Assembly: GCA_965230935.1 (NCBI GenBank)
Contig: OZ246400.1
Coordinates: forward strand, 438,359-502,358
Direction: 5' to 3'
Length of the DNA stretch: 64,000 nucleotides
Source: an uncultured Gammaproteobacteria bacterium
GTDB lineage: Bacteria > Patescibacteriota > Patescibacteriia > Magasanikbacterales > JBBTQS01
Positions 26,373 through 52,299 of this stretch are shown piece by piece (within the stretch, counting starts at the first letter, position 1; each line of letters opens with the position of its first letter). Position numbers and translations under genes: made by a program. Below the pieces are notes generated by a model, which saw only the letters and a list, made by a program, of their open reading frames with translations, was not told the origin of the DNA and searched no databases.

Positions 26373-27611
26373 ATGGACAAACGAAAATTGTTTGGCCTTA
26401 TTGGACTTATCGTTGGTTCAATAGGTATTGCTATTGCGATTTATTTCGTATTTTTTAAATCAGACACGCCCGAACCTACTCCAATCACTGATGAAACCGG
26501 AACCATCACTGGGTTTATCACTGCTGATGGTGAGCGCGTCCCGGTTGGCCCTGATGGCGAACCAATTATCACTCCGGACGCATTTCCTGAATCAGAAGCA
26601 CGGCCGCCATCGGCAGTTGCGGACGGTGGCCCAACAGCAACCCAAATCCTTGTTCCATCAGATGCACGCGATCTTAAATTCAACCCAAACGCAAAATCCC
26701 TACAATACTACGATCCCATCACCGGACTATTCCACCGCATTGGTGCTGATGGCGAAATTACCACACTCAACGACACGCCACTGGTAAATGCACGGGATGT
26801 TGCCTGGGCCAATGGAACTGACAAAGCAATCGTTGAATTTCCTGATGGGGCAAATGTGTTTTATGATTTTAAAACCCAGGAACAACGCACCTTACCAAGT
26901 CACTGGACTGAGTTTGAATTTTCTCCACAAGACGAAAGTATTGCCGCGAAAAAACTTGGCTTCTCCCCGGAGAACCGTCATTTGATTATTGCGAACCCGG
27001 ACGGGACGGCAGAACGCGCGGTTACCTTTCTTGGAAAGAACGCTCACAAACTTGATGTATCATGGTCACCGAATGATCAAGTGATCGGGTTTGCCCACAC
27101 CGGACGCAAACTTGGTCTTGGTCGCGAAGAAGTACTGCTGGTTGGTAAACATAACGAAAACTTTCCATCCTTAATTGTTGAAGGGCTTAAATTTCAACCA
27201 AAATGGTCTACCAAAGGTGATGCATTACTCTACAGCTCAATTAGTAGCAATAACGATCTGCAACCAGAATTATGGTTGGTCAATGCAGATACTGACAGTG
27301 TTGGCGAACAACGCATTCCACTTGGACTCACCACTTGGGCAGATAAATGTACCTTTAGTAATAATGAGAACATCTACTGTGCCGTACCAAATCCAGATCG
27401 ACTCCCATTTGGCATTGGATTTCGTCCAGACATGGCCAACAATACCGACGATACGATTTACCAAATCAACTTGAATACCGGAACAACCTCCATCGTCGGC
27501 AAACCGGATAAAAGTGTAACTGTTGATAGTTTGGTTGTTTCTGATGACAACTCGTTGCTGTACTTTACCGAGAAAAATACCGGCACCTTACACCAAATGA
27601 TCCTCAAGTAA
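26373..27611 (+). CDS. TM-anchored PD40/TolB-like beta-propeller repeat protein (paralog 1)
   Basis: N-terminal TM; repeated xxSWSPNDQ / FSPQDESIA / PDG motifs typical of PD40 blades; 412 aa. Confidence 0.5.
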   Translation: MDKRKLFGLIGLIVGSIGIAIAIYFVFFKSDTPEPTPITDETGTITGFITADGERVPVGPDGEPIITPDAFPESEARPPSAVADGGPTATQILVPSDARDLKFNPNAKSLQYYDPITGLFHRIGADGEITTLNDTPLVNARDVAWANGTDKAIVEFPDGANVFYDFKTQEQRTLPSHWTEFEFSPQDESIAAKKLGFSPENRHLIIANPDGTAERAVTFLGKNAHKLDVSWSPNDQVIGFAHTGRKLGLGREEVLLVGKHNENFPSLIVEGLKFQPKWSTKGDALLYSSISSNNDLQPELWLVNADTDSVGEQRIPLGLTTWADKCTFSNNENIYCAVPNPDRLPFGIGFRPDMANNTDDTIYQINLNTGTTSIVGKPDKSVTVDSLVVSDDNSLLYFTEKNTGTLHQMILK

Positions 27612-27612
27612 T

Positions 27613-28257
27613 ATGCAACGGCAAGAGACAGTTATTCTGTTGGTGGGAGGACTTGCAATCATTGCTATTTTCGCTTGGGGACTCTTGGCGCTCTATCAAC
27701 CAACGCCAGAAAAAACTCCGGTCACCTATCGCAGTGGCGCACCCGAAGTCTTTGCGGACGATCCATTCTTAGGGCCGGCTGATGCCAAAACAACAGTCGT
27801 TATGTACAGTGATGTTGGCTGCCTTGCTTGTGCGCGACAACTCGATATTATCGAAGATCTTCACAAGAGACTACCAGAGGTAAAGTTCGTCTGGAAAGAT
27901 CTCCCTGATCGGGGCATCATTATCCCAGAATATATGCAAGCCCATGTTGCAGCGCGATGTGCCCATGGGTATGGTAAGTTTTGGGAATACGCCCGTGAAT
28001 TGTTGATCAATCGCAATACCTTGATTGAATTTGATCATATTGGATTTGCCGGCACACTTGGGATTCCTTCAGTGCCATTTAGCCAATGTATGGGATCAGA
28101 CGCTGCAGCGCAAAGTGTAACCGCGAGTCTGCAACAAGGACGAGAGTTTGGCGTCTTCTCTACTCCGTATCTATTTGTAAACGAACGTCGCATTGATGGG
28201 GTTATTCCAATCAATCGACTCTTCCAAATTATTTTTGAAGCGAATGCGCGCTCATAA
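27613..28257 (+). CDS. DsbA/BdbD-like thiol:disulfide oxidoreductase, membrane-anchored
   Basis: TTVVMYSDVGCLACARQ (CxxC in thioredoxin context), N-terminal TM; 214 aa. Confidence 0.65.
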   Translation: MQRQETVILLVGGLAIIAIFAWGLLALYQPTPEKTPVTYRSGAPEVFADDPFLGPADAKTTVVMYSDVGCLACARQLDIIEDLHKRLPEVKFVWKDLPDRGIIIPEYMQAHVAARCAHGYGKFWEYARELLINRNTLIEFDHIGFAGTLGIPSVPFSQCMGSDAAAQSVTASLQQGREFGVFSTPYLFVNERRIDGVIPINRLFQIIFEANARS

Positions 28258-28261
28258 GAAT

Positions 28262-29863
28262 ATGAAAAGTAACAGTCTTTCAGCTCGAACATACTCAATC
28301 ACCCCACTTGGCATAGTGCTCCTGGCAAGCACGGTACTGAGCCTAGCGATTGTACCTTCACACGCCCAAGCACAATCAGATGGTGAACTCACCAAAACCG
28401 GAAAACAAACCGAGGCGATTACCAAACAAAAACAAGAGCTCAAACCAATACAGCCAAACCTAAACATCGACATTCCGGATCTACGCTTTACTGATCCTAG
28501 CACCTTGAGCGCCAAGATCAAAAACGGCGCCAAAGGATTTAGTATCCCGTTTCTTGGTGAATATATTTCTGGAATCTACACTTATGGCGTGGGGATCATT
28601 TCGATTTTAGGAATGATCGCACTAGTCGTTGGTGGAATTATGTACGCTGCCGCTGCTGGAAATAGCGAGCGCGTTGAGTTGGCAAAAAGTATCATTACTA
28701 ATTCATTTATTGGTATTGGTATTGCTGCCGGGAGCTACTTGTTACTGTATATTATTGATCCCAATCTCGTGGAGCTTAAAAACGTGGGAATTACTGTCGT
28801 TGAAAAAGAAGAGTTTGATTATGATACCGAAGAAATGGAACAACTTTCAGCTGATAGTCCGGTAACTGCTGCGGATAAAGTTGAAAACCCTACCGGGACA
28901 GACCATGGTTCTGCTGCATCTGCAGGTACCACTACCGGCACCACTGAATTTGTAACAAAAATAGTTCCATATTATGGAAAAACAGTTGAAGCGTGGACAA
29001 GTAGGTCAAAAAGCAAGACCATGACTGTCAATATCCCTAGCGCAATACCAGAATTTCTCCCAGCTGATCCTAGTGATTCTGCTTTACCAGCAGGATTTAC
29101 CAGTGTGAATCAGTTTAACAATAAAATGGCCATGATTGGGTACACCTTTGGTGATACGTCACTGAGTGCCAAAACATTTTGTAATCTCAAGGCAGCGAAT
29201 AAATCAACAAATTTTTCTGCAAGCGCATTTGCTGATTCCAAATATTTTGGCGCACTTGATTGCGCTGGAAACTACGGACCACGAAGTTCGATCAACTATC
29301 TTGTGCTTCACAATGCCGGTGCCAGTGCTTTCACCACAACCAAAAACTGGCGCCAAGGTAGTATTGGAAGATACAAAAAGAAAAAAGATGGAACCTGGTA
29401 TTATTGGAGAAAGCCGATCGCATCACACTTTTTTATCGAGGCAAGTGGCAAAACCTACCAACTTGCAGATACCAAACTCCACCTTCGGCACTGTTGTGGG
29501 AAAAATAAAACCTCTGTAGGTGTTGACTTACAACCCAACATTTACAAAGTAAAAGGTGGACCCAAAGGAATCAAAGGCAAAAAATTCAACTGGTACAAGC
29601 AAAGTGCCTACAACAAAATCAAAAAAATCGCTGACCTGGTTGGGGTTCCAATGACTAATGACACCATTATTTCTCATTGTGGTGAGTCTCCTGGACGACG
29701 CGTTGATCCAAATTATTTCTCCTGGGAAGCCATTGGCCTAAACACGAATCACGCAAAACATAAATGTACTTGGAGCGCACAAAAAGTGAACATCGCCAAA
29801 CAAGTCAAAGCAGAAGTTGGTGATGCCAAGTTTGAAGAAATGTGTCCTAAGTGTCCAATCTAA
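28262..29863 (+). CDS. Secreted peptidoglycan hydrolase: signal peptide, central 2-helix membrane-hairpin module, Ser/Thr-rich linker, C-terminal N-acetylmuramoyl-L-alanine amidase (Amidase_2/PGRP-like) domain
   Basis: signal MKSNSLSARTYSITPLGIVLLASTVLSLAIVPSHAQA; hairpin LNIDIPDLRFT...AAAGN...IIDP; amidase motifs LVLHNAG, SHFFIEASGKTYQLAD, SHCGESPGRRVDP. Confidence 0.6.
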   Translation: MKSNSLSARTYSITPLGIVLLASTVLSLAIVPSHAQAQSDGELTKTGKQTEAITKQKQELKPIQPNLNIDIPDLRFTDPSTLSAKIKNGAKGFSIPFLGEYISGIYTYGVGIISILGMIALVVGGIMYAAAAGNSERVELAKSIITNSFIGIGIAAGSYLLLYIIDPNLVELKNVGITVVEKEEFDYDTEEMEQLSADSPVTAADKVENPTGTDHGSAASAGTTTGTTEFVTKIVPYYGKTVEAWTSRSKSKTMTVNIPSAIPEFLPADPSDSALPAGFTSVNQFNNKMAMIGYTFGDTSLSAKTFCNLKAANKSTNFSASAFADSKYFGALDCAGNYGPRSSINYLVLHNAGASAFTTTKNWRQGSIGRYKKKKDGTWYYWRKPIASHFFIEASGKTYQLADTKLHLRHCCGKNKTSVGVDLQPNIYKVKGGPKGIKGKKFNWYKQSAYNKIKKIADLVGVPMTNDTIISHCGESPGRRVDPNYFSWEAIGLNTNHAKHKCTWSAQKVNIAKQVKAEVGDAKFEEMCPKCPI

Positions 29864-32538
29864 CTATGTTTCTTCGTTCCTTTTTGATAATCAGTAGCAT
29901 CTTTATCTCGGGCATGGGATTATTTGTGTTTCCTACCACCACTTCTGCTGATCCAGCAACTCCTAAAATAACCAGTCAAGCACAGCATGACGGCTCAACT
30001 GTCTATAACTATACGTCGACCTGCGACAATGCCGATGCACTTATGACCAGTGCAAAAAACTCCGGTGGGGCGAAAAATTGGCTCAAGGCAAATTCAAAAT
30101 TCAAAGACGAGTACATCACCTCCAAACGTGGGATTATTGTTTCAGACGGTGTTTCCAACATTGATCGAATTTACATCTGGTGGCATGGCATTGATGGCTG
30201 GAACAACAGCCCGGAAAAAATGTGTAATGGTACAGTCTCATTGTGTAAGCATGCCAAAACCATTAAAGACGCCGGAGTTAATGCGGCAATCTTGACTCCC
30301 ATTACCGTCAATGCTGGATCAGGTTCTCAAGTACTCAAGCAACCGGAGATCGATTGTTTTATCAATGAGGCGCGAGAAATTTTGAAAAATGAAATCAACG
30401 TGACCGGTGGTGATAGCGCACCAATTCTCGTAAGCGGACATAGTGGTGGTGGTGAGTTTGTTATGGGGTACTCAAAACTGTACCCTACTTCGCAGGCGCT
30501 CTTTTTTGATGCCTGCTATGGCAATACCTGCAAAAAGACAGCGGCACTATCCAATGTATCTCACGCTTCCTTCTATGCCCGACCGGGAGGAAAAGAAGCA
30601 AAAGGTTCAAAAAAAGGATATGACGAAGCACCGGACAAAACCAAATTTGCTACGCTGAAAAGTGGAGTGAGTCACTATGGTGTGGTGAAATATTGTTTTG
30701 CCGAACATGTGGTAGGTGGGCTTTGTGAAAACAGGGTGAAAGAGGAAAAAATGTTAGGGGTCGATCCATCTGGCAATCCTGTTGGATCAGGGCCTGCATC
30801 TGATCCAGGGACACCACCGCCGCCCACCGAAGGGTGTGTCTGTACCGGTGAAGCATCGATTGCACCGGCACACGTTGCATTGCTCGCAGTCGCAGGGAAA
30901 GAAGTGGAGATAGAAAAAGGATGTACTGACGAGTTGCACGGCAACTACTCCAACGGGGCTTGTTCAAGTATCAACTTTCAAATATCAGCACTGAGCAACA
31001 CCCAATGTGCGCAAAAAAGTGCTGCCATTGCTCCAACAGTGATCTCGAAATACATTGGTGCCGATGCTTCTCAAGCACTTCAAGATGCCACAACAATCTC
31101 AACATCATGCACCTGGTCACCAGTACCAGGTGGAGCAGGGAGTGCAGGTGCAGGCACTTCAGGAGCAAGCGGCACCGGCTCAGGTGGGGCAACACTTGTC
31201 GAAGCTTCTGAACCAGCAAAACCACTCGCAATCGCACCTCAGCTAAACATTGATATTCCCGGTCTTGAGTTCACTGAAGTGAAAGGTCTGGCCGGGGGAA
31301 GCACAGTGAATGTTCCGTTTATTGGTCAATATGTTGTTGGAATATATGAATATGCAATTGGGGTAATCACGATCATTGCATTGGTTGTTGTTATTATTGC
31401 CGGTGCCCGATATACCCTGGCCGCAGGAAATGCCGCAGCTGTCAAGCAAGCCAAAGAAATGGTTGGTGGTGCAGTAGTTGGTGTGCTTATTGCATTTGGT
31501 TCATACAGTATTTTAGCGATTATTGATCCGGGAACACTTCGGTATGATCCGCTCGGTGTTCAAGTGGTCGAGCGTATTGAGATCGAATTTCCTGACGATG
31601 ATTTGCCAGAGGAGTATGCAGCTCTTGCAGAGAAAGATGTACAAGAAAAAATACAAGCAGTGGCACTCGGTGAGATACCTCCACAAAAAGGAACCTTTGC
31701 ACAAAAAAAATTCTATGACAAATGTGGCGATCCGGCCACGATGATTGCAATTGCCGATAAATTTTTGGCGCAACCACTCTGCCAAGGGCCATGTCACTGC
31801 GCACCAACCATTCAACGGTGGCTTATTCAAAGTGGATGTGATCCTGCTGCACTTAAGGGTGCCGGACTGGTACGAAAAATGAAAGGACTATTGTATGCCA
31901 TGACTCATCCTGACGGAAGTCCAATGTATGTTGAGCGTTCAGGAGATGATACCGCGAATCTCAGCCCAGGAGATATCTTGTTTATTAAAAATGGCCATGT
32001 CGGCATGTACTATGGAGATGGATATACTGTTGACTCCGGTACAGGTCGGCAAAATCAAAAAACCTGTTTTTCAGATGGGTGCCCACGAAAAATTTGGGAT
32101 TCATACGGCACATCCAAATGCACCTCTTGCGGATTGATCAAAAAACATACTCCAGCAGATTGGTATTGGGCACGGGGTCAACTACAAAAAGATCTTACCA
32201 GTGGAAATGTCACCAATAACATCTGTTACAAAATCTGGCACGGTACTGCTACCACAGCCGAACGAAAAGTTATCGGGGAAAAAGTACAACAGAAAGCCGA
32301 CAAAACCTCATACGCGAAAACAAAGGCAAAATATCAAGCACTTGCCACAACACTCCTAACCGGTGGCACACTTACCCAAGCAGATAAAAAAACCGCACTC
32401 AAGTTTGCACCGAGCTATTGTACCAGTTGTGTCGGCAACCAATGTATCGCAAAAAACAAATGGAAAGGCCGACCAAAGGGAAGCAAAAAATATGGCTATG
32501 ACACCTATGCAGACTACCAACCACCATCAGGAACGTAA
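29851..32538 (+). CDS. Secreted multi-domain hydrolase: N-terminal alpha/beta-hydrolase (esterase/lipase-like GHSGGG) domain, Gly/Ala/Ser linker, same 2-helix membrane-hairpin module, C-terminal CHAP/NlpC-P60-like cysteine peptidase
   Basis: signal peptide; WWHGIDGW + VSGHSGGG; hairpin LNIDIPGLEFT...LAAGN...IIDP (about 50% identical to neighbour); CHCAPTIQ ... GDILFIKNGHVGMYYGDG (Cys/His CHAP-like). Confidence 0.55.
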   Translation: MSNLTMFLRSFLIISSIFISGMGLFVFPTTTSADPATPKITSQAQHDGSTVYNYTSTCDNADALMTSAKNSGGAKNWLKANSKFKDEYITSKRGIIVSDGVSNIDRIYIWWHGIDGWNNSPEKMCNGTVSLCKHAKTIKDAGVNAAILTPITVNAGSGSQVLKQPEIDCFINEAREILKNEINVTGGDSAPILVSGHSGGGEFVMGYSKLYPTSQALFFDACYGNTCKKTAALSNVSHASFYARPGGKEAKGSKKGYDEAPDKTKFATLKSGVSHYGVVKYCFAEHVVGGLCENRVKEEKMLGVDPSGNPVGSGPASDPGTPPPPTEGCVCTGEASIAPAHVALLAVAGKEVEIEKGCTDELHGNYSNGACSSINFQISALSNTQCAQKSAAIAPTVISKYIGADASQALQDATTISTSCTWSPVPGGAGSAGAGTSGASGTGSGGATLVEASEPAKPLAIAPQLNIDIPGLEFTEVKGLAGGSTVNVPFIGQYVVGIYEYAIGVITIIALVVVIIAGARYTLAAGNAAAVKQAKEMVGGAVVGVLIAFGSYSILAIIDPGTLRYDPLGVQVVERIEIEFPDDDLPEEYAALAEKDVQEKIQAVALGEIPPQKGTFAQKKFYDKCGDPATMIAIADKFLAQPLCQGPCHCAPTIQRWLIQSGCDPAALKGAGLVRKMKGLLYAMTHPDGSPMYVERSGDDTANLSPGDILFIKNGHVGMYYGDGYTVDSGTGRQNQKTCFSDGCPRKIWDSYGTSKCTSCGLIKKHTPADWYWARGQLQKDLTSGNVTNNICYKIWHGTATTAERKVIGEKVQQKADKTSYAKTKAKYQALATTLLTGGTLTQADKKTALKFAPSYCTSCVGNQCIAKNKWKGRPKGSKKYGYDTYADYQPPSGT

Positions 32539-33586
32539 TTGGTTTAGCTCCATCGTAGCGTTTGTGGTGGTAATACTCTTTGGACTTTTTATTTTGTATT
32601 TTTACCTAAACATTACCCCACCAGGACCAACGACCCATCAACCTATCGCATTGGTTTCAAGCACAATCAACAGCGTAAAGTTTAATCCGGTTCATCGCAC
32701 CATCACCTATCGTGATACTGATGGTTTTCACCTGCTTGATATTCAACAAAAGAAGATGGGAGAATTGCCAATGCCTTTTTCGATCGACCCTGATGCAGAA
32801 TACATTTTTTCTCCAAACTACCACTTTGCTGCAGTAGTTGATAGTTCTCGTGATCTGTATCTGCGCGATCTGACCAATGGAGAACAGATGTGGTTGGGTA
32901 GCCAACCGACCAGTATTGACTGGGCAGTTGATGAATCCACATTACTTTATGCGCTTTTGGAAGAATCAGAAGATGATGAGGACACCACCGCCATAGAGTA
33001 TGTCCATGTGTTTGATACTGAAACACAAGAGGATACATTACTGCGAGAACTGCTTGTACGTGATGATGAATCAGTATCACTTGGCTACTCAGAGCGACCT
33101 AATCATATTATCTATTCTTCTGATGATGGAGATTTTGGGTATAGCTATTTCGAAGTCAATCTGAACGAACCCGATGATGAAGACGTCTATCTTGATGATC
33201 TCAACATCTATTCACTCAGTTACTCACCATCAAATCGTTATCTTATTTACCTTCCATTTACATTCGAACTCGATGAATCATACCGCATCAAAGATTTTAA
33301 AACCGGAGAGGAAAAAGAAGTCCCATTTGAATTTGAAGGGTATGATTGTACGTGGGACACTCGTGAAGAAAACATGTACTGTGTGGATTATTCTGATCCA
33401 AATAACCCTTTACTCCCGATTCAGCACTATAACTTACCGGCCGGCACATCTACGACAATCGCTCACCTGAATGCTGAAGATTACACTACCAATGGAGTAA
33501 TGATCAACGATGATCAGGAGCTCTTTTTCATGAATCTCAACGACAACAGACTCTACGGTATGCAACTCTCAGGTGTGGTAAGATAG
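32492..33586 (+). CDS. TM-anchored PD40-like beta-propeller repeat protein (paralog 2)
   Basis: same architecture as 26373 gene (TM then SIDPDAEYIFSPNYHF / SLSYSPSNRYLIY blades); start chosen at ATG 32492 with AAGGGAAG SD (listed 32363 start overlaps upstream gene by 175 nt). Confidence 0.45.
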   Translation: MAMTPMQTTNHHQERNWFSSIVAFVVVILFGLFILYFYLNITPPGPTTHQPIALVSSTINSVKFNPVHRTITYRDTDGFHLLDIQQKKMGELPMPFSIDPDAEYIFSPNYHFAAVVDSSRDLYLRDLTNGEQMWLGSQPTSIDWAVDESTLLYALLEESEDDEDTTAIEYVHVFDTETQEDTLLRELLVRDDESVSLGYSERPNHIIYSSDDGDFGYSYFEVNLNEPDDEDVYLDDLNIYSLSYSPSNRYLIYLPFTFELDESYRIKDFKTGEEKEVPFEFEGYDCTWDTREENMYCVDYSDPNNPLLPIQHYNLPAGTSTTIAHLNAEDYTTNGVMINDDQELFFMNLNDNRLYGMQLSGVVR

Positions 33587-41540: not shown

Positions 41541-43430
41541 TTAAACTTCTCCACCTTCACCTTCTTGCGCTGCTTGGAGCTCTTTACGCGCCTCTTCAAT
41601 CTCAATCAGCTGACGTGGGTCAGTAGTAATAATTTGATCTTCAGTATACGAAGCGACGATTTTAATAGCCGCATGACGCGAACCGGCAAAAAAGATTCCT
41701 TCACCAACACCGCCCTCGAGCAACAAATACTTCTCCCCTTCAGTGAGCAAAAACGTCTTTTGCACCAAATCAATTGATGCCGGAGATTGTCGCAATAGCA
41801 ACTGGAGCTGCGAGTTCGTCACAATGGCTTGACCGTAGACCGAAGTCAAAAAGTCGTTTACATCCTGGGTAATGGTAGTCACGCCCAAGAAATACTTTCG
41901 AGCGCGCTTGGCCAGCGCGAAGATGAACTTGGCTGAATCTTCGTGTTGCATCAACCACCACGCCTCATCAATCACGAGAATACGTCGCTTTACCTCTGAT
42001 CGTACCACATTCCAAATAAAGTTAATAATGTTGTACACCGCGATTGGACGCAGTTCATCTTCCAGATCACGAACACTAAAAATCATCAATCCGTTATTAA
42101 TATCAACGGTTGTCGGTGAGTTGAGCAACCCGGAAAACGTACCGGTGGTATATTTTTCAAGTTTCGTAATCAAACTATCACTCCCTTCCATACCACTTAA
42201 GATATCGGCCAAATCTTGCATAATAGGAGGTTCAACTGTAGCAATATCTGCATCAGGAGTAATATCCTTTTTGGCATAGGTCTCAAGCAAGGCACGATCC
42301 AGCATAGAATCTTCCTCAGGAGTCAGATTCCCTAACATAATCCGCATCATGCCCTTAACCGTAATCACGGCACTACGAATAATATCTTCCATGTCAATTT
42401 GCTGCCCAACCGGACGTGGCAAATCAAACGGGTTAACTTTAGACTCCGAAGCAAGTGAGATATTAATGTACGTTCCACCAACTGCTTCTGCCAAATGCTT
42501 ATACTCCATCTCCGGATCAATAATGATCACATCAGTCCCAAGCATCAAACTCCGCAAAACCTCAAGCTTAATCGCATAACTTTTTCCAGCACCTGAAGTC
42601 GCAAATACGACTGAGTTTGCATTTTGCAATGAGAACCGATCAAACAAAATCAGACTGTTATTATGGCGGTTAATCCCGTACAAAATTCCATTCTCTGAGG
42701 TTAGCTCAGCTGAGATAAACGGAAATGATGCAGCAATTGGTGAGCTGTTCATATTAAAGGTCACCATCAACTCATCATTACCAAGTGGCAACGTTGAGTT
42801 AAATCCTTGCTCTGCTTGATAAAATACGCGCTTGGAATAAATCAACTTAGCACCAAACACATTTTCAACATCTCCGGAAATACGATCTAACTCATCCTTG
42901 CTCTTTGCATAAATCGTAATGTACAGCGCGAATTGGAAAAATTTTTCAATCCCTTGGGTGAGGGCATCACGCAATTGCTCGATATCGCGCAAAGCAGTCT
43001 CACGAATCGGATCGCGGGGCGCGCCCTTCTCAGCATCGGAGAGAATCTGCGCTTCCATAACACCGGATTGATTTTTGAGCTGTTTTAATACCACGGCAGT
43101 TTTCACCGGATAAAAGAACATGGCAATATCCAGTGTGTTGGAAAAATTAATAATCGGCGCAAACCACCCAACGGTAATATAGCGTGGATATGCCACCACA
43201 AACATGGTACGCACAAACGTATCCCCCAAGAGCACGTGCGAGGGGTTGATTTTCATGGCTGCCGGCGCAATCAAATCACGGATGTTCACCACCCCGGTAC
43301 GAAAGACCTTTTCCTCGGCCAACGTCCCCAAAGCCTCACGAGTATCTTTTGCGCGTTTTGATTCTTGTTTTTGTGCCTTGGCTTTCAGCCCTTCGGTCGC
43401 TTGTTTTTGTGAAATTGGTTTAAAGGCCAT
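41541..43430 (-). CDS. virB4: VirB4/TrbE/PrgJ-family type IV secretion ATPase
   Basis: Walker A FATSGAGKSY, DPEMEY, Walker B ILVIDEAWWL, GVTTITQ; 629 aa. Confidence 0.8.
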   Translation of the reverse strand: MAFKPISQKQATEGLKAKAQKQESKRAKDTREALGTLAEEKVFRTGVVNIRDLIAPAAMKINPSHVLLGDTFVRTMFVVAYPRYITVGWFAPIINFSNTLDIAMFFYPVKTAVVLKQLKNQSGVMEAQILSDAEKGAPRDPIRETALRDIEQLRDALTQGIEKFFQFALYITIYAKSKDELDRISGDVENVFGAKLIYSKRVFYQAEQGFNSTLPLGNDELMVTFNMNSSPIAASFPFISAELTSENGILYGINRHNNSLILFDRFSLQNANSVVFATSGAGKSYAIKLEVLRSLMLGTDVIIIDPEMEYKHLAEAVGGTYINISLASESKVNPFDLPRPVGQQIDMEDIIRSAVITVKGMMRIMLGNLTPEEDSMLDRALLETYAKKDITPDADIATVEPPIMQDLADILSGMEGSDSLITKLEKYTTGTFSGLLNSPTTVDINNGLMIFSVRDLEDELRPIAVYNIINFIWNVVRSEVKRRILVIDEAWWLMQHEDSAKFIFALAKRARKYFLGVTTITQDVNDFLTSVYGQAIVTNSQLQLLLRQSPASIDLVQKTFLLTEGEKYLLLEGGVGEGIFFAGSRHAAIKIVASYTEDQIITTDPRQLIEIEEARKELQAAQEGEGGEV

Positions 43431-43432
43431 AC

Positions 43433-44131
43433 CTATTGTTGGTCAAGTCGAATCTTACTTACCTCACCCATCTTTTCACTCATAAATACATCAGGATTGT
43501 ACACATTGTAATACAGCTCGATCAGGCTTTGGGTATCGAGGCGCGCAGTCTCCAAACTCATCCCACCCAGACCAGAGATTACTTTGCGCAATCGCATGTC
43601 GAGCTCTTCTTTTCGCTTGCGAAACTTTTCACTGCGCAACTTAAGGGTGAACGCTGGTTTTGCCGCTTCTTTGAGTCGGGTAAAGTATCCTTTACGCTTG
43701 TTGGACAACGGATCATACGGCACCACCACAAAAAATCGTTTACTCATAATCTCACCAAGATCAACCAGCTCTTTTACAAACGATCGGTAATCAGCGATTT
43801 GCATCTTGAGTAATTCATTGGGCTGCTCTTTTTCGGCTTCTGATAAACGATTCATGTACCCTTCAATGTTGAGTTTTCGTGATTGAATCACAATCTGCAA
43901 CGGAAAATCCAAACTATTTAAAAATCCAACATACGAGCTGATCAGTGCATTTTGCTCATCTTCTGATTTGAGCGAAAAGTTAACACTGGAAACCAACAAC
44001 ACCGCGCGCAGTGTTCCGTCTTTGAGTACCACAACATCATCTTTGATCTCAGCAATATCCAAAAACTTCTGCGTAGTAGTTTTAATTGTCTTCTTGGCCA
44101 ATTTTTTTGACTGCATACTATTGCTGATCAT
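43433..44131 (-). CDS. Hypothetical protein in T4SS-like operon (232 aa, soluble, Lys-rich)
   Basis: no motif recognised; tightly packed between VirB3-like and VirB4. Confidence 0.45.
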   Translation of the reverse strand: MISNSMQSKKLAKKTIKTTTQKFLDIAEIKDDVVVLKDGTLRAVLLVSSVNFSLKSEDEQNALISSYVGFLNSLDFPLQIVIQSRKLNIEGYMNRLSEAEKEQPNELLKMQIADYRSFVKELVDLGEIMSKRFFVVVPYDPLSNKRKGYFTRLKEAAKPAFTLKLRSEKFRKRKEELDMRLRKVISGLGGMSLETARLDTQSLIELYYNVYNPDVFMSEKMGEVSKIRLDQQ

Positions 44132-44573
44132 CAGGGCGATACACCCCGCCAGTGTTTACCACAAGTGATAAATCGGAAAGTCGACTCTTGCTTGCAGGCT
44201 TTTTTTCTACGATCTGCGCTCGCTGCGCCTGCAACTCTGCTTCGCGCTTTTCTTTTTTTGTTGGCTTTGGTGGTTGTATTGTATCATCTTTACCCTTCAT
44301 CCACACGCGGATTCCCGGCTTACGCATGGTTTGAAAAAAATTCAGGATAAAATAGTGAAACCGCTGACCGCGCACTTTGACAAACGCCAGGACAATGGCA
44401 AAAAAAATCAACGGAATTCCAGTGGTTAAAAACAGTGCAAAGTCAAAGAGTTTAAAAAAAATAAACTCAAACATACCAGCTACCAATAAAATCATAAACT
44501 GGCGGCCGGTGATAGGCCCGATAATCTTTGCTTCCTCATCAATAAATTGTGGAATCACAAATCGATCAGCCAT
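44118..44573 (-). CDS. Small 2-TM hairpin membrane protein, VirB3/PrgI-like by size, topology and position immediately upstream of VirB4
   Basis: FMILLVAGMFEFIFFKLFDFALFLTTGIPLIFFAIVLAFV hydrophobic hairpin; 151 aa. Confidence 0.4.
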   Translation of the reverse strand: MADRFVIPQFIDEEAKIIGPITGRQFMILLVAGMFEFIFFKLFDFALFLTTGIPLIFFAIVLAFVKVRGQRFHYFILNFFQTMRKPGIRVWMKGKDDTIQPPKPTKKEKREAELQAQRAQIVEKKPASKSRLSDLSLVVNTGGVYRPDDQQ

Positions 44574-46301: not shown

Positions 46302-49154
46302 TTACTCATCAAACTGAGCAAAACTTCCAGCACTTGGCGGCTCTGATGCTTTGAACTCTGCAACCACTTCCGGCTTACTCTTTTCAATTGCGCTGAGCAC
46401 TTGTTGCATGCTTACTCCTGCTTGTCCGGCATTGCCTTTACCAATGGCCTTGACCATTGCCTTTTGCAACACCTTCAATGCTTTGACCGTTCCAACACTA
46501 TCGCTAAATCCTTGTTGTGCTGTAGGTGAGCTATTGATTGCAGACATGGCAGCATCTCCTTGTCCAGCAGCGATCAACTTACCAAGATTTTCGCCCACAC
46601 TTGCGGCATCTGGTTTTGCTCCACCGACCGCCTTTTCAAATACGTCTTGGAAATCTTTTGGATTGGTGACATGGACACTGAGTACGCCACTTTTCTCCTT
46701 GTCATCTTTCTCTTCACCCTCTTCTTTGCCACCTGATGCTGGTTTTTCAGTCTTCGGTGCCGCCTTTGGTTCGGCCTTTGGCGCACCTTTCACACCTGCT
46801 GCTTCAGTTGGTTCAGCTGCTTCTTCTGGTTTTTTCCCTGGTTTGCGACGTGATCCTACCCCACTTGTTGGACGTTTTGCTTTGCCAGTAGGTGGCGCCT
46901 CTTCAGCTGCACCCTCCTCTGGTGCAGCAGCAGCCGCATCAGCTGGTGGTGGAGTTGGTTTTGGTCGACGACGAGCTCCTGATCCTACACCACTGGTTGG
47001 TCGTTTTGCTTTGCCAGCTGGCGGCTCAGTAGGCTCAGGTGGTTCTGGACGATCATGTGAGCCGGCATCAACATCTTGGTCTTGGCCAGGACGTTGGGTT
47101 GGAGCACCACCGCCACCGGCAGCTCCTCCACCGCCTGCGGCGCCTCCTCCTGCACCACCTGCGCCAGCTGCACCACCACCGGCAGCTCCGCCTCCTCCTG
47201 CACCACCTGCACCGCCGCCAGGACCTGGTGCCGGACGACCAGCAGCACTGCCATGGAATCGGGTGTTCCATGCGTCTCTTTCTGCTCTTGAGTCATCACC
47301 TTTGTTTCGTTTCATGTACTCTTTCTCCATAGCAGCAAAGTCAACAACCTTATCGTATGTATCATCATTTACACCAGGAGCAAGTTGATTCTGATGTGCA
47401 GGAGTTGATCCAGCAGGGAACTTGCGACCTGCCTCTGTCAAAAGTTCGGTATCATCAAAGTCAGTGTAGTCTTTTTGCTTATCAGCAACCGCCCCACGAA
47501 TCTCTTTACGCGCACCATCAGTCGGATTAGTGGTTCCGCGCTCTTGTACTTGTCGCTTGTTGTATGCCTCTTTAACATCTGACTGTTTCTCATCACCACT
47601 CTTAAAGAAGAAACCTCCAACTGTACCGAAATCTTTTGCACCTTTGCGCGCAGAATAAATCTGAGACCCGTCTTTTAAGAATGGAATTTGTGCTTTTCCT
47701 GATGCCACATCTTTTGATGCAGACTTCAAAAAGTTAACCCCTTTATTAACCGTATTCCCAACAGTCTGCTGAGTAAGCTGTTTAGTATAGCCATATCCTT
47801 TATCCACTCCAGCACGCGCATATCCGGCAATCTTCGCGGCAACAGTAGCCGCAGCCCCGCTCATCCCACCGGCATATTTAATTCCTCCAATGAGCACAAC
47901 ACTACTCACAATAAAGGCAGCCATGTTATTCCAGGTCGAAATCTCAGTATTCGTAATACTTGGTGTGTCTTTAAATGCTTTCCCTTCTCCACCAAGTGCA
48001 TCAACGACCACTTTTACGGAATCAGAATTCATCAAATCAAAAGCAGCCTCATTTTGCTGAACCGAAGTTAAGGCAAGCCAGACAAAAAATACCAAGATTG
48101 GACCAACCGTAATTTGTTTCACCAAATGATCTACCCACTTACTAAAGTATTGTCTAGTTGCAGGAAGCACGGCAAACAAAAATGCCAAAGGAGATAGAAT
48201 AATCAAAATCCAAATGCCAACAATTCGAAAAACAATCACCAGCAACAAGGTAAGCGCGATCGTCAACGCAAAAGTAGAAATAATTAACGTCAAGCTCAAC
48301 CCAATCCAGTTTTGAATAAAGTCATAACTTACAAACGACGCTGCGATTTGGGTGCCAATTTCTGCAAGTGCGCTCCCTGTTGCTTCACCTTCGGCCTTTC
48401 CAACAGTGTCCTGAACGGCAATAGCCGCTTGATCGATCAATGGTTTAAGCTTGAGCCAAGAATCAATACGCAATAAGTTAACAAAGTTTCTTCCTGCACT
48501 GTCATATAAGGCACTGGAGAATGTCAACATGACCACTTGTGCAGCATCAAGAAGTAGTCCAATAATGGTTCTACTGAAGTTCACCAAAAAGATTGCCAGG
48601 ATCAATCGTGGAATCAATTGTTGATATTGATATGAAGCAATCCGAAAGACCGTTGCAAAAGCGATCACCAACAATACCACCACAAAAAACATGTTTGCTA
48701 CATCCCGGATTGTTGCCCAACCGCTATTAACAAACTCATTATCCAAAAAGTTATTGTACTGGATCATCAAGATAAACGTATTCCATGACCAAATCAGCAC
48801 CCCATTTACCAATTGACTAAACGATTGAATAATAATGTCAAAAAGCAAAAAGAACACATAGAGCATGAAACCTTCGCCAGCCAAACCAACAGCACCTGAC
48901 GCCAAACCACCGAGCAATGCTGCTCCGGTCGCCCCTAAAAACTTTCCAATCTTGGCAACTTTTACCCCTTCAGAATAGTCAGCAACATCACTGTTGAGCA
49001 CCACTGATGTATCTGTTGCGGTGTATGGCACATTGACTGCGGCTTGTGCCTGCGCCATGCCAAGCGAACCAAACAATGAAGACAAGGTAAATACAAAAAG
49101 ACACGCGCCCACAATCGCTTTTCTTAATGAAAGATGTCTATATATGCTTTGCAT
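46302..49154 (-). CDS. Polytopic membrane protein, VirB6/PrgH/TcpH-like by topology and operon position, with long Gly/Ala- and Pro-rich low-complexity region and charged C-terminal domain
   Basis: signal peptide + at least 6 TM in first 450 aa; PAPGPGGGAGGAGGGGAAGGG... stretch; 950 aa. Confidence 0.45.
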   Translation of the reverse strand: MQSIYRHLSLRKAIVGACLFVFTLSSLFGSLGMAQAQAAVNVPYTATDTSVVLNSDVADYSEGVKVAKIGKFLGATGAALLGGLASGAVGLAGEGFMLYVFFLLFDIIIQSFSQLVNGVLIWSWNTFILMIQYNNFLDNEFVNSGWATIRDVANMFFVVVLLVIAFATVFRIASYQYQQLIPRLILAIFLVNFSRTIIGLLLDAAQVVMLTFSSALYDSAGRNFVNLLRIDSWLKLKPLIDQAAIAVQDTVGKAEGEATGSALAEIGTQIAASFVSYDFIQNWIGLSLTLIISTFALTIALTLLLVIVFRIVGIWILIILSPLAFLFAVLPATRQYFSKWVDHLVKQITVGPILVFFVWLALTSVQQNEAAFDLMNSDSVKVVVDALGGEGKAFKDTPSITNTEISTWNNMAAFIVSSVVLIGGIKYAGGMSGAAATVAAKIAGYARAGVDKGYGYTKQLTQQTVGNTVNKGVNFLKSASKDVASGKAQIPFLKDGSQIYSARKGAKDFGTVGGFFFKSGDEKQSDVKEAYNKRQVQERGTTNPTDGARKEIRGAVADKQKDYTDFDDTELLTEAGRKFPAGSTPAHQNQLAPGVNDDTYDKVVDFAAMEKEYMKRNKGDDSRAERDAWNTRFHGSAAGRPAPGPGGGAGGAGGGGAAGGGAAGAGGAGGGAAGGGGAAGGGGAPTQRPGQDQDVDAGSHDRPEPPEPTEPPAGKAKRPTSGVGSGARRRPKPTPPPADAAAAAPEEGAAEEAPPTGKAKRPTSGVGSRRKPGKKPEEAAEPTEAAGVKGAPKAEPKAAPKTEKPASGGKEEGEEKDDKEKSGVLSVHVTNPKDFQDVFEKAVGGAKPDAASVGENLGKLIAAGQGDAAMSAINSSPTAQQGFSDSVGTVKALKVLQKAMVKAIGKGNAGQAGVSMQQVLSAIEKSKPEVVAEFKASEPPSAGSFAQFDE
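47040..47260. repeat. GC-rich low-complexity tandem-like repeats (GGn/GCn codons) encoding Gly/Ala/Pro tract inside VirB6-like gene
   Basis: ccaccgcc / gcaccacc / ggagc iterations; generates long spurious antisense ORF 46351..47388. Confidence 0.5.
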
Positions 49155-50226: not shown

Positions 50227-50682
50227 CTTATCCTCCCTCTGTGTGTGGTGTGTAGTGAATCTTCTTCGCCGATCTGCATTGTTTAAAGAGCTGCTTCTGC
50301 AGCAAACAATGAAGTTTGTCGCTTCTGCAACCGTATATCATATCATAATTTGGTGTTTTTGTCAATATTAATTTAGCTAAAATAAGATAAAATCCTAAAA
50401 TAAGTCACAAACTATGCACAGAAAAGCCTTTGTTTGCTGGGTTTTCTATTGACAGAGGGGTACTGTTTTGCTACTGTAAAAGTGACTAAATGTGTCAAAT
50501 AGTTCTTTGTAAAAAGTTGCAAAATCGCACCGGAATGAGGAGTGCAAGCTCATCACTCTAGCGCGATTTTGCAACCAAGAGGGAAAGCCAACCACTTGTA
50601 GTCGTTCTGCTGGAGGTCCCGGGTGGGGCCTGCGACAGGAGTTGCGCCAGGCCACACTCAGACCTATCGGGGGAAAGAAACG

Positions 50683-51531
50683 ATGAAGACCAGGACCCTT
50701 TCGACCATGGCCGTGCTGGCGGCTCTGGTGCTCGCGGGCTGCGCCGCTGAGGCGCCGACCGACGGCAACATGACGCCGGACCAGCAGATCGACCAAAAGA
50801 CGTTCACCGTGGAGGTGGTCGTCGAGCACGCCCAGAATCGTGTGGGCAACGCCGAGGTCACGGCGATGACGCACGGCGCGGTGGCGTACACCGACCACAA
50901 CGGGGTGGCGACGTTCGACAGTCTGCCGGCCGGGCCGGAGACGTTCAAGGTGGACGCGCCGACCATCGAGAAGCCGCTGTACGTGGACGTGAACGTGGGC
51001 GAGGACGACGCGCCGATCACGACCGAGACCGTCACGATCGACCCGGCCGACGCCACCGACACGCCGACGCCGAGTGACGACACCTCGCCCATCGCCGGGC
51101 TGGATCCGGAGCTGGACGAGTACGTCAAGATCGGGTGGGCCACGTGGCTGAGCTTCGACGCCGAAGGCGCGCAAATGGCCGGCGGTGGGCCGAACGACTG
51201 GTACGAGATCGGGTACAACGCCAAGCAGGGCGCGTACAAGATCTACGACCAGGGTCATCCGTTCAGCACCAACTACATCGACACGATCGCCTGCTTCGTG
51301 GAGGTCAAGTCGGACTGCGGTGCTGAGGCGTGCCTGTCGTGCGAGGACCTGATGGTCGGCAACAAGGGGTTCTACTACTCCACCATCGGCACGGTGAGCG
51401 AGAACGGCCACAAGTTCGAGTTTAGCTCAACCAAGACCACGGGAAGTGGGACCGATCCGGTCGGAACAGACGTGTTCACCCTGGAGACCGACCCGGACGG
51501 GAACTACTTCGAGGGCTACGGCGACGAGTAG
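50683..51531 (+). CDS. High-GC secreted lipoprotein A (lipobox LAGC) with N-terminal Thr/Asp/Pro-rich region and 141-aa C-terminal 4-Cys domain shared with lipoprotein B
   Basis: MKTRTLSTMAVLAALVLAGCAAEA; start reassigned to ATG 50683. Confidence 0.5.
   Translation: MKTRTLSTMAVLAALVLAGCAAEAPTDGNMTPDQQIDQKTFTVEVVVEHAQNRVGNAEVTAMTHGAVAYTDHNGVATFDSLPAGPETFKVDAPTIEKPLYVDVNVGEDDAPITTETVTIDPADATDTPTPSDDTSPIAGLDPELDEYVKIGWATWLSFDAEGAQMAGGGPNDWYEIGYNAKQGAYKIYDQGHPFSTNYIDTIACFVEVKSDCGAEACLSCEDLMVGNKGFYYSTIGTVSENGHKFEFSSTKTTGSGTDPVGTDVFTLETDPDGNYFEGYGDE
51101..51525 (+). repeat. Direct repeat copy 1 (425 bp, identical to 51866..52290), encodes shared C-terminal domain
   Basis: read base-by-base against copy 2; identical protein-level ORFs also appear in all overlapping frames of the ORF track. 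Confidence 0.85.
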
Positions 51532-51690: not shown

Positions 51691-52299
51691 ATGCCATACC
51701 GATATGCGATGGGCTTCGTGCTCATGATGCTCTTGAGCACCTGCGCAGACACGACGTCCAATGAGGATGGGCGTCCTCATGGACTGACCTCTGATCCCGG
51801 CCTGTTTACGAACGAAGACGCCCGACCATGGTCACCCAGCCTCACCGGCAATCCGATTGATGGCATGGATCCGGAGCTGGACGAGTACGTCAAGATCGGG
51901 TGGGCCACGTGGCTGAGCTTCGACGCCGAAGGCGCGCAAATGGCCGGCGGTGGGCCGAACGACTGGTACGAGATCGGGTACAACGCCAAGCAGGGCGCGT
52001 ACAAGATCTACGACCAGGGTCATCCGTTCAGCACCAACTACATCGACACGATCGCCTGCTTCGTGGAGGTCAAGTCGGACTGCGGTGCTGAGGCGTGCCT
52101 GTCGTGCGAGGACCTGATGGTCGGCAACAAGGGGTTCTACTACTCCACCATCGGCACGGTGAGCGAGAACGGCCACAAGTTCGAGTTTAGCTCAACCAAG
52201 ACCACGGGAAGTGGGACCGATCCGGTCGGAACAGACGTGTTCACCCTGGAGACCGACCCGGACGGGAACTACTTCGAGGGCTACGGCGACAACCAGTAG
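51691..52299 (+). CDS. High-GC secreted lipoprotein B (LLSTC lipobox-like) with the same 141-aa C-terminal 4-Cys domain
   Basis: MPYRYAMGFVLMMLLSTCADTT; perfect AAGGAGG SD; 202 aa. Confidence 0.5.
   Translation: MPYRYAMGFVLMMLLSTCADTTSNEDGRPHGLTSDPGLFTNEDARPWSPSLTGNPIDGMDPELDEYVKIGWATWLSFDAEGAQMAGGGPNDWYEIGYNAKQGAYKIYDQGHPFSTNYIDTIACFVEVKSDCGAEACLSCEDLMVGNKGFYYSTIGTVSENGHKFEFSSTKTTGSGTDPVGTDVFTLETDPDGNYFEGYGDNQ
51866..52290 (+). repeat. Direct repeat copy 2 (425 bp identical to 51101..51525); downstream about 80 bp also about 90% similar including terminator
   Basis: see copy 1. Confidence 0.85.

Follow-up and report, generated by a model that had tools for sequence, protein, structure and literature searches.

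The question raised by this locus is why two neighbouring cell-wall hydrolases should carry, inside their sequences, one and the same pair of membrane helices. The locus lies in a stretch of 64,000 nucleotides (hereafter the window: positions 438,359 to 502,358 of contig OZ246400.1, assembly GCA_965230935.1, from an uncultured bacterium placed by GTDB in the Patescibacteriota, Magasanikbacterales), in which two adjacent and co-directional open reading frames (ORFs) encode the proteins that we call ProtA and ProtB, whose exact sequences are present in public collections. The answer proposed here is that the shared module is a complete VirB2-like pilin domain of a type IV secretion system (T4SS), of the lineage of the Pfam family PF18895, and that ProtA is by its domains an amidase and ProtB a cysteine peptidase, as predicted from conserved motifs. 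A VirB2-type pilin serving in this way as a chassis for modular wall hydrolases is a widespread arrangement among Patescibacteria, and one of which the literature searched gives no description. The features of the two genes, in window coordinates, are the following.

28262..29863, + strand: ProtA gene, 533 aa (signal peptide, pilin module, acidic and Thr-Gly-rich linker, Amidase_2), from ORF and domain search
28262..28372, + strand: predicted Sec signal peptide of ProtA, aa 1-37 (...SHAQA, followed by QS; hydropathy segment 11-36)
28445..28816, + strand: pilin module of ProtA, aa 62-185 (N-terminal motif, IPFLGEYI, helical hairpin, IIDPNLV, junction strand)
28547..28756, + strand: two-helix membrane hairpin of ProtA, aa 96-130 and 135-165, with the turn AGNS and a conserved loop Lys
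29285..29710, + strand: Amidase_2 domain of ProtA (N-acetylmuramoyl-L-alanine amidase), aa 342-483, from Pfam and the zinc-ligand columns
29866..32538, + strand: ProtB gene, 890 aa from ATG
29950..30825, + strand: N-terminal extracytoplasmic domain of ProtB, about 290 aa, with many Cys and a GHSGG motif
31231..31620, + strand: pilin module of ProtB, aa 456-585 in the 890-aa numbering, from BLASTP, MAFFT and the pilin hidden Markov model (HMM)
31330..31539, + strand: two-helix membrane hairpin of ProtB, hydropathy segments 494-527 and 537-563 in the 895-aa numbering, short-pilin HMM 491-560 (E 1.6e-15)
31648..32535, + strand: C-terminal Cys-rich NlpC/P60-like (papain-fold) domain of ProtB, from motif alignment and a PDB profile search

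ProtB thus runs from a signal peptide through an N-terminal domain of no recognized family, a Cys-rich segment and a Gly/Ser/Ala linker to the pilin module, and from there through an acidic linker to the NlpC/P60-like domain; an alternative in-frame GTG start at 29851 would lengthen it to 895 aa and overlap the ProtA stop, and public gene calls start at the ATG. Hydropathy gives both proteins a signal-peptide-like N-terminus, for which an A-x-A motif would be the cleavage site in ProtA, and all their cysteines (8 in ProtA and 27 in ProtB) lie outside the hairpin.

Between the two proteins BLASTP finds a single similar stretch, ProtA 63-208 against ProtB 461-602 (35% identity and 62% positives over 147 aa, E 3e-29), which MAFFT aligns at 37% identity across 146 aa, and whose core, from LNIDIP to IIDP, is identical at 42 of 101 positions (42%). 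The sequence-only reading from which this work started had put the identity at about 50% over roughly 130 aa; the shared module stands, but the identity comes down to 35-42%. All the motifs that it listed (LNIDIP-L-FT, PF-G-Y--GIY-Y, AAGN between the hydrophobic helices, and GSY--L-IIDP followed by an acidic stretch) were found, and in a 32-sequence alignment they are positions conserved throughout the family. The local score of the core is 226, against 37.5 +/- 6.7 (maximum 67) in 500 composition-preserving shuffles, and this separation (z = 28), together with the conserved motifs and the conserved polar and Gly positions, means that the similarity is real and excludes generic transmembrane low complexity as its source. 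The two hydrophobic helices were likewise confirmed, both by hydropathy and by AlphaFold2, whose model from a 122-sequence alignment places helices at module residues 42-76 and 81-111 around a 4-residue turn, with a predicted local distance difference test (pLDDT) above 90 there and low confidence in the region of the N-terminal motif. The module had also been placed between extracellular domains, and this holds for ProtB, where an N-domain and a C-domain flank it, but not for ProtA, where it begins about 25 residues after the signal peptide.

What, then, is this hairpin? Two long hydrophobic helices with a short polar, Lys-bearing turn are a pilin feature, and the module has it in both hydropathy and the AlphaFold2 model. 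Taken directly, ProtA matches PF18895 (T4SS_pilin) on the hairpin (aa 101-156) below threshold, at 22.3 bits for a cut-off of 26.6 (E 1.4e-4), ProtB has no match to this family at E<=1, and the module has a weak NCBIfam match (aa 99-164 of ProtA) to the "pilin-like conjugal transfer protein" of a Mycoplasma integrative and conjugative element. Among the best 105 relatives, PF18895 is matched by 88 at E<=1e-3, with a best E of 9.8e-28. A profile of 32 modules retrieves free proteins of 95-130 aa that carry PF18895, and often PF04956 (TrbC) too, from Parcubacteria, Magasanikbacteria, Pacebacteria and Saccharibacteria, some of them named "VirB2 component (pilin)" or "pilin"; hhalign joins the module profile to 30 such free pilins with 98.4% probability (E 6e-15) over 65 columns that span the whole hairpin, and an HMM built from 79 free pilins matches nothing in the 64 kb of the window except ProtA (1.3e-14) and ProtB (5.6e-16). 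The resemblance to VirB2/TrbC-type pilins, which had been offered tentatively, is therefore right at the level of homology. The same significant homology rules out a holin-like hairpin, and no relatives were found in viral contigs with the narrow search patterns used, which lends no support to an origin from a phage holin or endolysin. A Foldseek search of the hairpin model against the PDB gave generic helical hairpins (best E 0.9) and no pilin in the top 50.

It is at the ends of the module that one sees how much of the pilin has been kept. The free pilins of about 123 aa carry L-x-S-[IL]-P-[GN] directly after their signal peptide, the counterpart of LNIDIPGL in the module of ProtA and ProtB (the full motif of ProtA being P-x-L-N-I-D-I-P-x-L-x-F-T), and they end at ...NP-x-L-V-x-L-x-F, exactly where the enzyme linker starts in the fusions. 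Since the free pilins share both the N-terminal motif and this C-terminal end, the module corresponds to the entire mature pilin, and on the evidence of these alignments the fusion point is the natural C-terminus of the pilin. In addition, several Gly, the loop Lys, a Tyr and the Pro of NP are invariant or almost invariant non-hydrophobic positions in fusions and free pilins, which, together with the natural pilin end, suggests that the hairpin does more than anchor the protein.

Beyond that end the fusions continue through NP-x-L-[VT]-x-[FL]-[KR]-x-[LI]-x-[IVL]-x-x-[VI]-[EKQ]-[RK] into the acidic linker, and this conserved post-pilin junction (ProtA aa 166-185, window 28757-28816), which is present in the fusions and not in the free pilins, might form a structural strand or mark a site of processing. 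Here a first alternative presents itself, namely that the proteins are pro-pilins with an enzymatic propeptide, in which a cut after ...NP-x-L-V-x-F-K would free a soluble hydrolase and a mature T4SS pilin. Such trimming has a precedent in the C-terminal processing established for RP4 TrbC-type propilins, and it would agree with the exact stop of the free pilins at the junction, with the conserved 10-residue segment and acidic linker just past it, and with the result that the HMM of free pilins detects no separate pilin gene in the T4SS operon of the window or elsewhere in its 64 kb. However, the roughly 430 residues between the signal peptide and the pilin of ProtB would need a second cleavage, and proteins with tandem modules, described below, would require several cuts; we consider it very improbable.

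The enzymes themselves differ in how clearly they can be named. The assignment of ProtA to the Amidase_2/PGRP type was borne out, since its Amidase_2 match (PF01510) reaches 32.5 bits for a gathering score of 26, and the zinc-ligand columns His, His and Asp (H in LVLHNAG, H in ISHCGE and D in RRVDP of ProtA) align with H17, H122 and C130 of T7 lysozyme and are conserved among relatives. Matches of the domain to AmpD/AmpDh2 are weak, and phmmer of both proteins against the PDB gave marginal AmpDh2 matches and noise. For ProtB the label CHAP has to be given up, as CHAP (PF05257) has no match at E<=1; its C-terminal domain instead matches NlpC/P60 (PF00877) below threshold (13.6 for 23 bits), contains the motifs C-x-G-P-C-H-C-A and G-H-V-G, invariant in a 7-sequence alignment with relatives, and as a profile of these seven sequences returns 27 matches in the PDB, every one an NlpC/P60 enzyme (best E 0.0037). 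Judged by these motifs it is a divergent NlpC/P60-like domain that stays below the formal family threshold, and the expected catalytic residues are found in both proteins, His/His/Asp in Amidase_2 and a conserved Cys and His in the NlpC/P60-like domain. The N-domain of ProtB has no match in Pfam, NCBIfam or the PDB and no homologue, its single-sequence AlphaFold2 model is unusable (pLDDT 36), and only a GHSGG motif speaks for the name "esterase" that it had received. A ProtB orthologue in a close relative (P0019, locus L014, 10001-11335), 72% identical in the C-terminal region, begins with the pilin module at residue 3, devoid of the signal peptide and of the whole 450-aa N-terminal region, which marks this region as a lineage-specific and recent addition in the lineage of the window, and also means that this pilin must be able to translocate its N-terminal tail when no signal peptide is present.

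The fusion is by no means peculiar to this genome. A word-index homology search recovered only ProtB itself with the full-length protein, and nothing, not even itself, with the ProtA module alone; this insensitivity made necessary an exhaustive HMMER scan with a two-sequence profile of ProtA and ProtB against 1.84 billion cluster representatives, which yielded 20,924 representatives with relatives of the module at E<=1e-3 and 5,286 at E<=1e-10. Among the best 150, more than 120 aa lie C-terminal to the module in 140 and N-terminal to it in 52, and 12 contain 2-4 tandem pilin modules; this list is biased to full-module matches and thus gives no overall fusion fraction among PF18895 proteins. 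The tandem proteins P0003, P0004, P0007, P0008 and P0009 consist of 2-4 pilin copies followed by SLT or other domains, that is, of covalently concatenated pilins. The domains counted by Pfam in the best 105 relatives, in classes that are not mutually exclusive, are VanY (14 proteins), Amidase_2 (13), Peptidase_M15 (12), SLT (11), Peptidase_C39_2 (7), NlpC/P60, M15_4 and 3D (4 each), M23 (2), and GH18, CHAP and Glucosaminidase (1 each), so that the pilin-hydrolase design recurs with many classes of wall hydrolase. Public names, where given, cite the enzyme alone, for example "D-alanyl-D-alanine carboxypeptidase family protein", and the other proteins are unnamed. One module protein of 134 aa looks free (P0142, locus L033, on the 917-kb contig OZ173682.1), but it stands among many short gene fragments, close to pieces of C39_2 and tRNA-synthetase genes, and probably represents a pilin-peptidase fusion broken by a frameshift, not a free pilin.

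To relate these proteins to a secretion system one must turn to their neighbourhood. Along the + strand of the window the genes encode, in this order, LemA, M48 peptidase, ClpB-like protein, 412-aa protein, DsbA-like protein, ProtA, ProtB, 364-aa protein and RadA, and the features that matter here are these.

26373..27611, + strand: 412-aa membrane-anchored putative beta-propeller, upstream of DsbA, with a weak TolB-propeller match
27613..28257, + strand: DsbA-like thioredoxin-fold oxidoreductase (Pfam Thioredoxin_4), 5 nt upstream of ProtA
32492..33586, + strand: 364-aa membrane-anchored putative beta-propeller, downstream of ProtB, kept in the close relative L014
40845..49154, - strand: T4SS-like operon (227-aa protein, VirB4, TrsD-like, PrgI/VirB3-like, 569-aa protein, VirB6/TrbL-like)
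41541-43430, - strand: VirB4, above the NCBIfam CD1110-family cut-off
43433-44131, - strand: TrsD-like
44118-44573, - strand: PrgI/VirB3-like
46302-49154, - strand: VirB6/TrbL-like

The genes of the cassette around ProtA and ProtB are separated by gaps of 1-24 nt or overlap, and it is from this spacing alone that an operon may be supposed, a scan for promoters and terminators between 22 and 35.8 kb having shown no excess over shuffles. The 412-aa protein has no Pfam match and is barely similar to the 364-aa protein (E 0.002); the upstream propeller protein accompanies the pilin-hydrolase genes in almost all of loci L002-L032, and might regulate the hydrolases or act together with them. The T4SS operon lies 8.3 kb from ProtB on the opposite strand, beyond RadA, RecG and tRNAs, at about 11-12 coding sequences (CDSs) from ProtA and ProtB to virB4. 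In its VirB6/TrbL-like protein the C-terminal half, several hundred residues long, is of low complexity and rich in Gly, Ala and Pro. Adjoining the operon is a GC-rich island (49.3-52.3 kb, about 57% against a background of about 45%), which holds a 300-nt direct repeat of 98% identity (51088-51387 and 51853-52152) through which the C-terminal halves of two paralogous ORFs (50623-51531 and 51691-52299) are identical, pointing perhaps to a recent duplication or to DNA of foreign origin; between this island and rsmA/sua5-like genes there is a giant ORF of 2,792 aa (52404-60782, - strand) with no Pfam match.

Thirty related loci (L002-L027, L029-L032) were drawn from genome and metagenome collections and from look-up of individual relatives, and because the locus search, made with a 5-sequence alignment, found close relatives only, they form a phylogenetically narrow sample. 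All those with a trustworthy taxon label are metagenome-assembled genomes of Patescibacteria; four (L003, L004, L008 and L010: CAZVGV01, CAYZOG01, CAYWEE01 and CAYJLM01) are titled "uncultured Gammaproteobacteria", a label that is probably wrong, their synteny being of the Patescibacteria type and their VirB4 of the candidate phyla radiation (CPR) type. In nearly all the loci, as far as the flanks permit, the propeller protein is followed by DsbA, one to four pilin fusions and RadA, usually with ClpB first. At this fixed syntenic site the pilin module is kept and the enzyme module is swapped between genomes: it is Amidase_2 in the window, L014, L029 and L032, Peptidase_M15_4 in L002/3/4, M15/VanY in L007 and L031, SLT in L009, or a module of no assigned family. 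A virB4 operon lies within the flanks (<=10 kb) in 4 of about 13 distinct loci. In three of them (the window, L004 and L014/15) it lies downstream, at a distance of 5-9 kb and on the other strand; in L009, the only locus where fusions belong to the T4SS operon, as ProtA and ProtB do not, a single strand carries in succession VirB6, the homologue of the 569-aa protein, PrgI, TrsD, VirB4, the homologue of the 227-aa protein, a fusion, propeller, DsbA, a fusion with SLT, and RadA.

The known systems offer several terms of comparison. A survey reported VirB2-like pilins (PF18895, PF04956) together with VirB4 from 1,948 assemblies of Patescibacteria, where the pilin genes often form arrays of 2 to 11; it accepted any match with more than 50% HMM coverage within +/-20 CDSs of virB4 (PMC12102498). 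ProtA would satisfy this criterion, and both ProtA and ProtB, like the surveyed pilins, lie within that distance; pilin-enzyme fusions go unmentioned in the survey (PMC12102498), and Table S3 of Quinonero-Coronel 2025 gives VirB2 calls without protein lengths. With the free pilins of their own phylum the modules of ProtA and ProtB share the homologous hairpin, the Gly, Lys and Tyr positions, the N-terminal motif and the C-terminal boundary (in the subfamily of about 123 aa), but they are internal to enzymes of 533 and 890 aa in a cassette with DsbA and beta-propellers, whereas the free pilins are proteins of 95-160 aa, often in arrays of 2-11 genes. Compared with the VirB1-type hydrolases of monoderms (PrgK of pCF10, TraG of pIP501, TcpG, and the CD419/TrsG profiles), which bear SLT, CHAP or NlpC/P60 and are proposed to open the wall for T4SSs of the same MPF-FATA ancestry, they are alike in being membrane-anchored and multi-modular, but unlike in having a pilin as anchor in place of a simple N-terminal transmembrane segment, in including Amidase_2 among their modules, and in lying, in the window, outside the T4SS operon instead of inside it. 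It is relative to these described hydrolases that the anchoring architecture deserves the word unusual, which the sequence-only reading had applied to it.

Closer to the biology of the phylum is Southlakia epibionticum, whose T4SS cluster is essential and needed for epibiotic growth (Wang 2023, PMC10633639). This cluster includes six short PF18895 pilins (SEML1_0014-0019; PMC10633639) and, next to VirB4, the essential proteins SEML1_0006, with two lysozyme-like domains and a Cys peptidase, and SEML1_0007, with an M15/DD-peptidase fold (PMC10633639, Tables S1 and S2). The folds of these hydrolases belong to the classes that in the window and its related loci are joined to pilins, but no pilin domain is reported for the two proteins (Table S2), and the pilins are separate genes. 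The same parts are thus separate genes of a T4SS cluster in one organism and one polypeptide elsewhere, which is a link of the Rosetta-stone type. In reviews, whether these monoderm systems build a pilus is treated as an open question, and an exciting one, and the T4SS as having no known role (PMC12857230, PMC11665869), and for Patescibacteria the T4SS is described as essential for epibiotic life and completely unknown in function (PMC11665869, PMC10633639). Tubes have been reported between the cultivated parasitic bacterium OT8, which has no nucleotide biosynthesis, and its host, and the authors suggest that they may be T4SS pili (bioRxiv 10.64898/2026.06.21.733656); in Gram-positives, PrgF of pCF10 has lately been proposed as a VirB2-like pilus protein. 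In full-text search no paper turned up that describes pilin-hydrolase fusions, within a literature collection that is not complete; entries for them may exist in domain-architecture databases.

With these elements, the reading that we favour, and to which we would give about an even chance, is that ProtA and ProtB are modular pilins of the VirB2 type, and that their pilin part brings the wall hydrolases to the T4SS conduit or mounts them on it. The signal peptide would be cleaved and the hairpin would insert with both termini on the outer side and the Lys-bearing turn in the cytoplasm, a topology to which the signal peptide, the Cys-rich flanks and DsbA point. The enzyme modules, probably extracytoplasmic to judge by the signal peptides, by cysteines that all lie outside the hairpin and by the conserved DsbA gene 5 nt upstream, would face the wall and be oxidised by the co-transcribed DsbA. 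The pilin part, rather than being a mere anchor, would attach to the pool of T4SS pilins or to the conduit, or be assembled together with them, and the amidase and the endopeptidase would open the peptidoglycan at the very point at which the wall is traversed by the machine or its pilus, a VirB1-like job carried out inside a pilin; action on the wall of a host at the contact site may be added to this. It is the retention of pilin-specific features that suggests such a joining of the pilin pool or conduit, and a cleavage focused at the crossing point. The link of the fusions to a T4SS is given by the contiguous order in L009, by a virB4 gene less than 10 kb away in three further arrangements (the window, L004 and L014/15), and by a window operon in which no free pilin is detected. 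A role in VirB1-like remodelling or in attack on a host wall for the T4SS, as had been suggested at the outset, is plausible but unproven: the operon is 8.3 kb away on the other strand, about two thirds of the loci are without virB4 within 10 kb, and the neighbours that are conserved are a beta-propeller membrane protein, DsbA and RadA.

Several points weigh against this reading: (i) the direct PF18895 score of ProtA is below the Pfam cut-off and ProtB has no match, and the fold search with Foldseek is uninformative, the fold being so small; (ii) the T4SS of the window is on the opposite strand, with RadA, RecG and tRNAs between, and no virB4 is found in flanks of up to 10 kb in about 9 of the 13 loci (L002/16, L003/17, L005/19, L020-22, L029-32); (iii) the invariant neighbours are envelope and housekeeping genes (GlmM-like PGM, MurD, LemA, M48 peptidase, ClpB, DsbA, RadA), and the range of fused enzymes, VanY-type DD-carboxypeptidases included, looks like a full autolysin toolkit; (iv) a globular domain of 350 aa on each subunit is hard to fit in a VirB2-type filament, and in the literature searched pilus formation is shown for no PF18895 protein; (v) the window is only 64 kb of a genome of 931 kb, so that free pilins may exist elsewhere in it.

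The second and third of these points lead to the main alternative, a serious one even if we hold it to be somewhat unlikely: the proteins would be housekeeping autolysins independent of the T4SS, for which the pilin hairpin was recruited as a membrane tether of general use, perhaps with the ability to oligomerise, and as hydrolases of the cell's own growth and division they would work with the propeller membrane protein and DsbA rather than with the T4SS. Such autolysins would be at home in the conserved order of propeller, DsbA, fusion(s) and RadA amid MurD, GlmM-like PGM, LemA, M48 and ClpB, in the approximately two thirds of loci without virB4 inside 10 kb, and beside fused enzymes that cover all the classical autolysin classes, DD-carboxypeptidases too; and a beta-propeller gene also accompanies an unrelated 4-module SLT fusion (L028). 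However, a single transmembrane helix would be enough as a tether, and what has been kept is the whole mature pilin, with its N-terminal motif, loop Lys, exact C-terminal boundary and pilin-specific invariant residues. The fusion gene that directly follows the T4SS operon in L009, the T4SS of the window with no other pilin nearby, and the hydrolases of the same folds that are essential members of the T4SS cluster in S. epibionticum also speak in favour of a T4SS-coupled role.

A pilin may also carry its cargo outward. In Streptococcus sanguinis the bimodular PilB and PilC of type IV pili consist of a pilin module with a grafted globular module displayed by the filament; the principle of design is that of ProtA and ProtB, but the pilin superfamily is unrelated and the modules are adhesins, not wall hydrolases. 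In type VI secretion systems, VgrG, PAAR and Hcp bear C-terminal toxin domains, as in the peptidoglycan-degrading VgrG-3 of Vibrio cholerae, and here too a subunit of the secretion apparatus is fused to a wall-degrading enzyme, with the difference that machine and fold are others and that delivery is established by experiment for those effectors and hypothetical for ProtA and ProtB. By analogy with these toxin domains, one may imagine an enzyme-armed pilus or effector, in which VirB4 would extract the hairpin and the fusion would enter an extracellular pilus, at the tip or sparsely, to digest the wall of a host. In the solved conjugative pili of the F family the termini of the pilin are on the exterior of the filament, and a complete pilin with enzymes at its termini, as well as the proteins with 2-4 tandem modules, would suit such an arrangement; a rapid change of enzyme at a fixed locus is what would be expected of host-directed weapons, and both the tubes between OT8 and its host (bioRxiv 10.64898/2026.06.21.733656) and the essentiality of the T4SS for epibiotic growth (PMC10633639) could be read in this sense. 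Nevertheless, polymerising subunits that carry domains of 350-450 aa poses a steric problem, no immunity-like gene is evident beside the hydrolases, VanY-type carboxypeptidases would be odd weapons, and the genomic linkage of the fusions to T4SS genes is partial; we judge it decidedly unlikely. A more general form, in which the T4SS pilin of many Patescibacteria would serve as a secretion or assembly handle for enzymes, and fusions extracted by VirB4 would stand on the pilus or be released from it, drilling the walls of the cell itself and of its host, is also unlikely in our view, if less so. Were it true, such a pilus drill would be the T4SS counterpart of the VgrG/PAAR effectors, and would provide a mechanism for the essentiality of the T4SS in epibiosis.

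What the modular pilins mean goes beyond this locus. VirB2-like pilins set the T4SSs of Patescibacteria apart from those of other monoderms, and to find this pilin joined to amidases, endopeptidases, carboxypeptidases and lytic transglycosylases ties it directly to the breaching of the wall. For annotation, the consequence is that surveys that count PF18895 matches as "pilins" probably take in fusions unnoticed. If the hairpin should prove to be a mere tether, then a pilin of a secretion system would have been co-opted as the general anchor of a wall-remodelling toolkit across a major bacterial radiation; and if it keeps company with the T4SS, as we favour, the fusions may show how an essential secretion machine passes the cell walls in the ultrasmall Patescibacteria.

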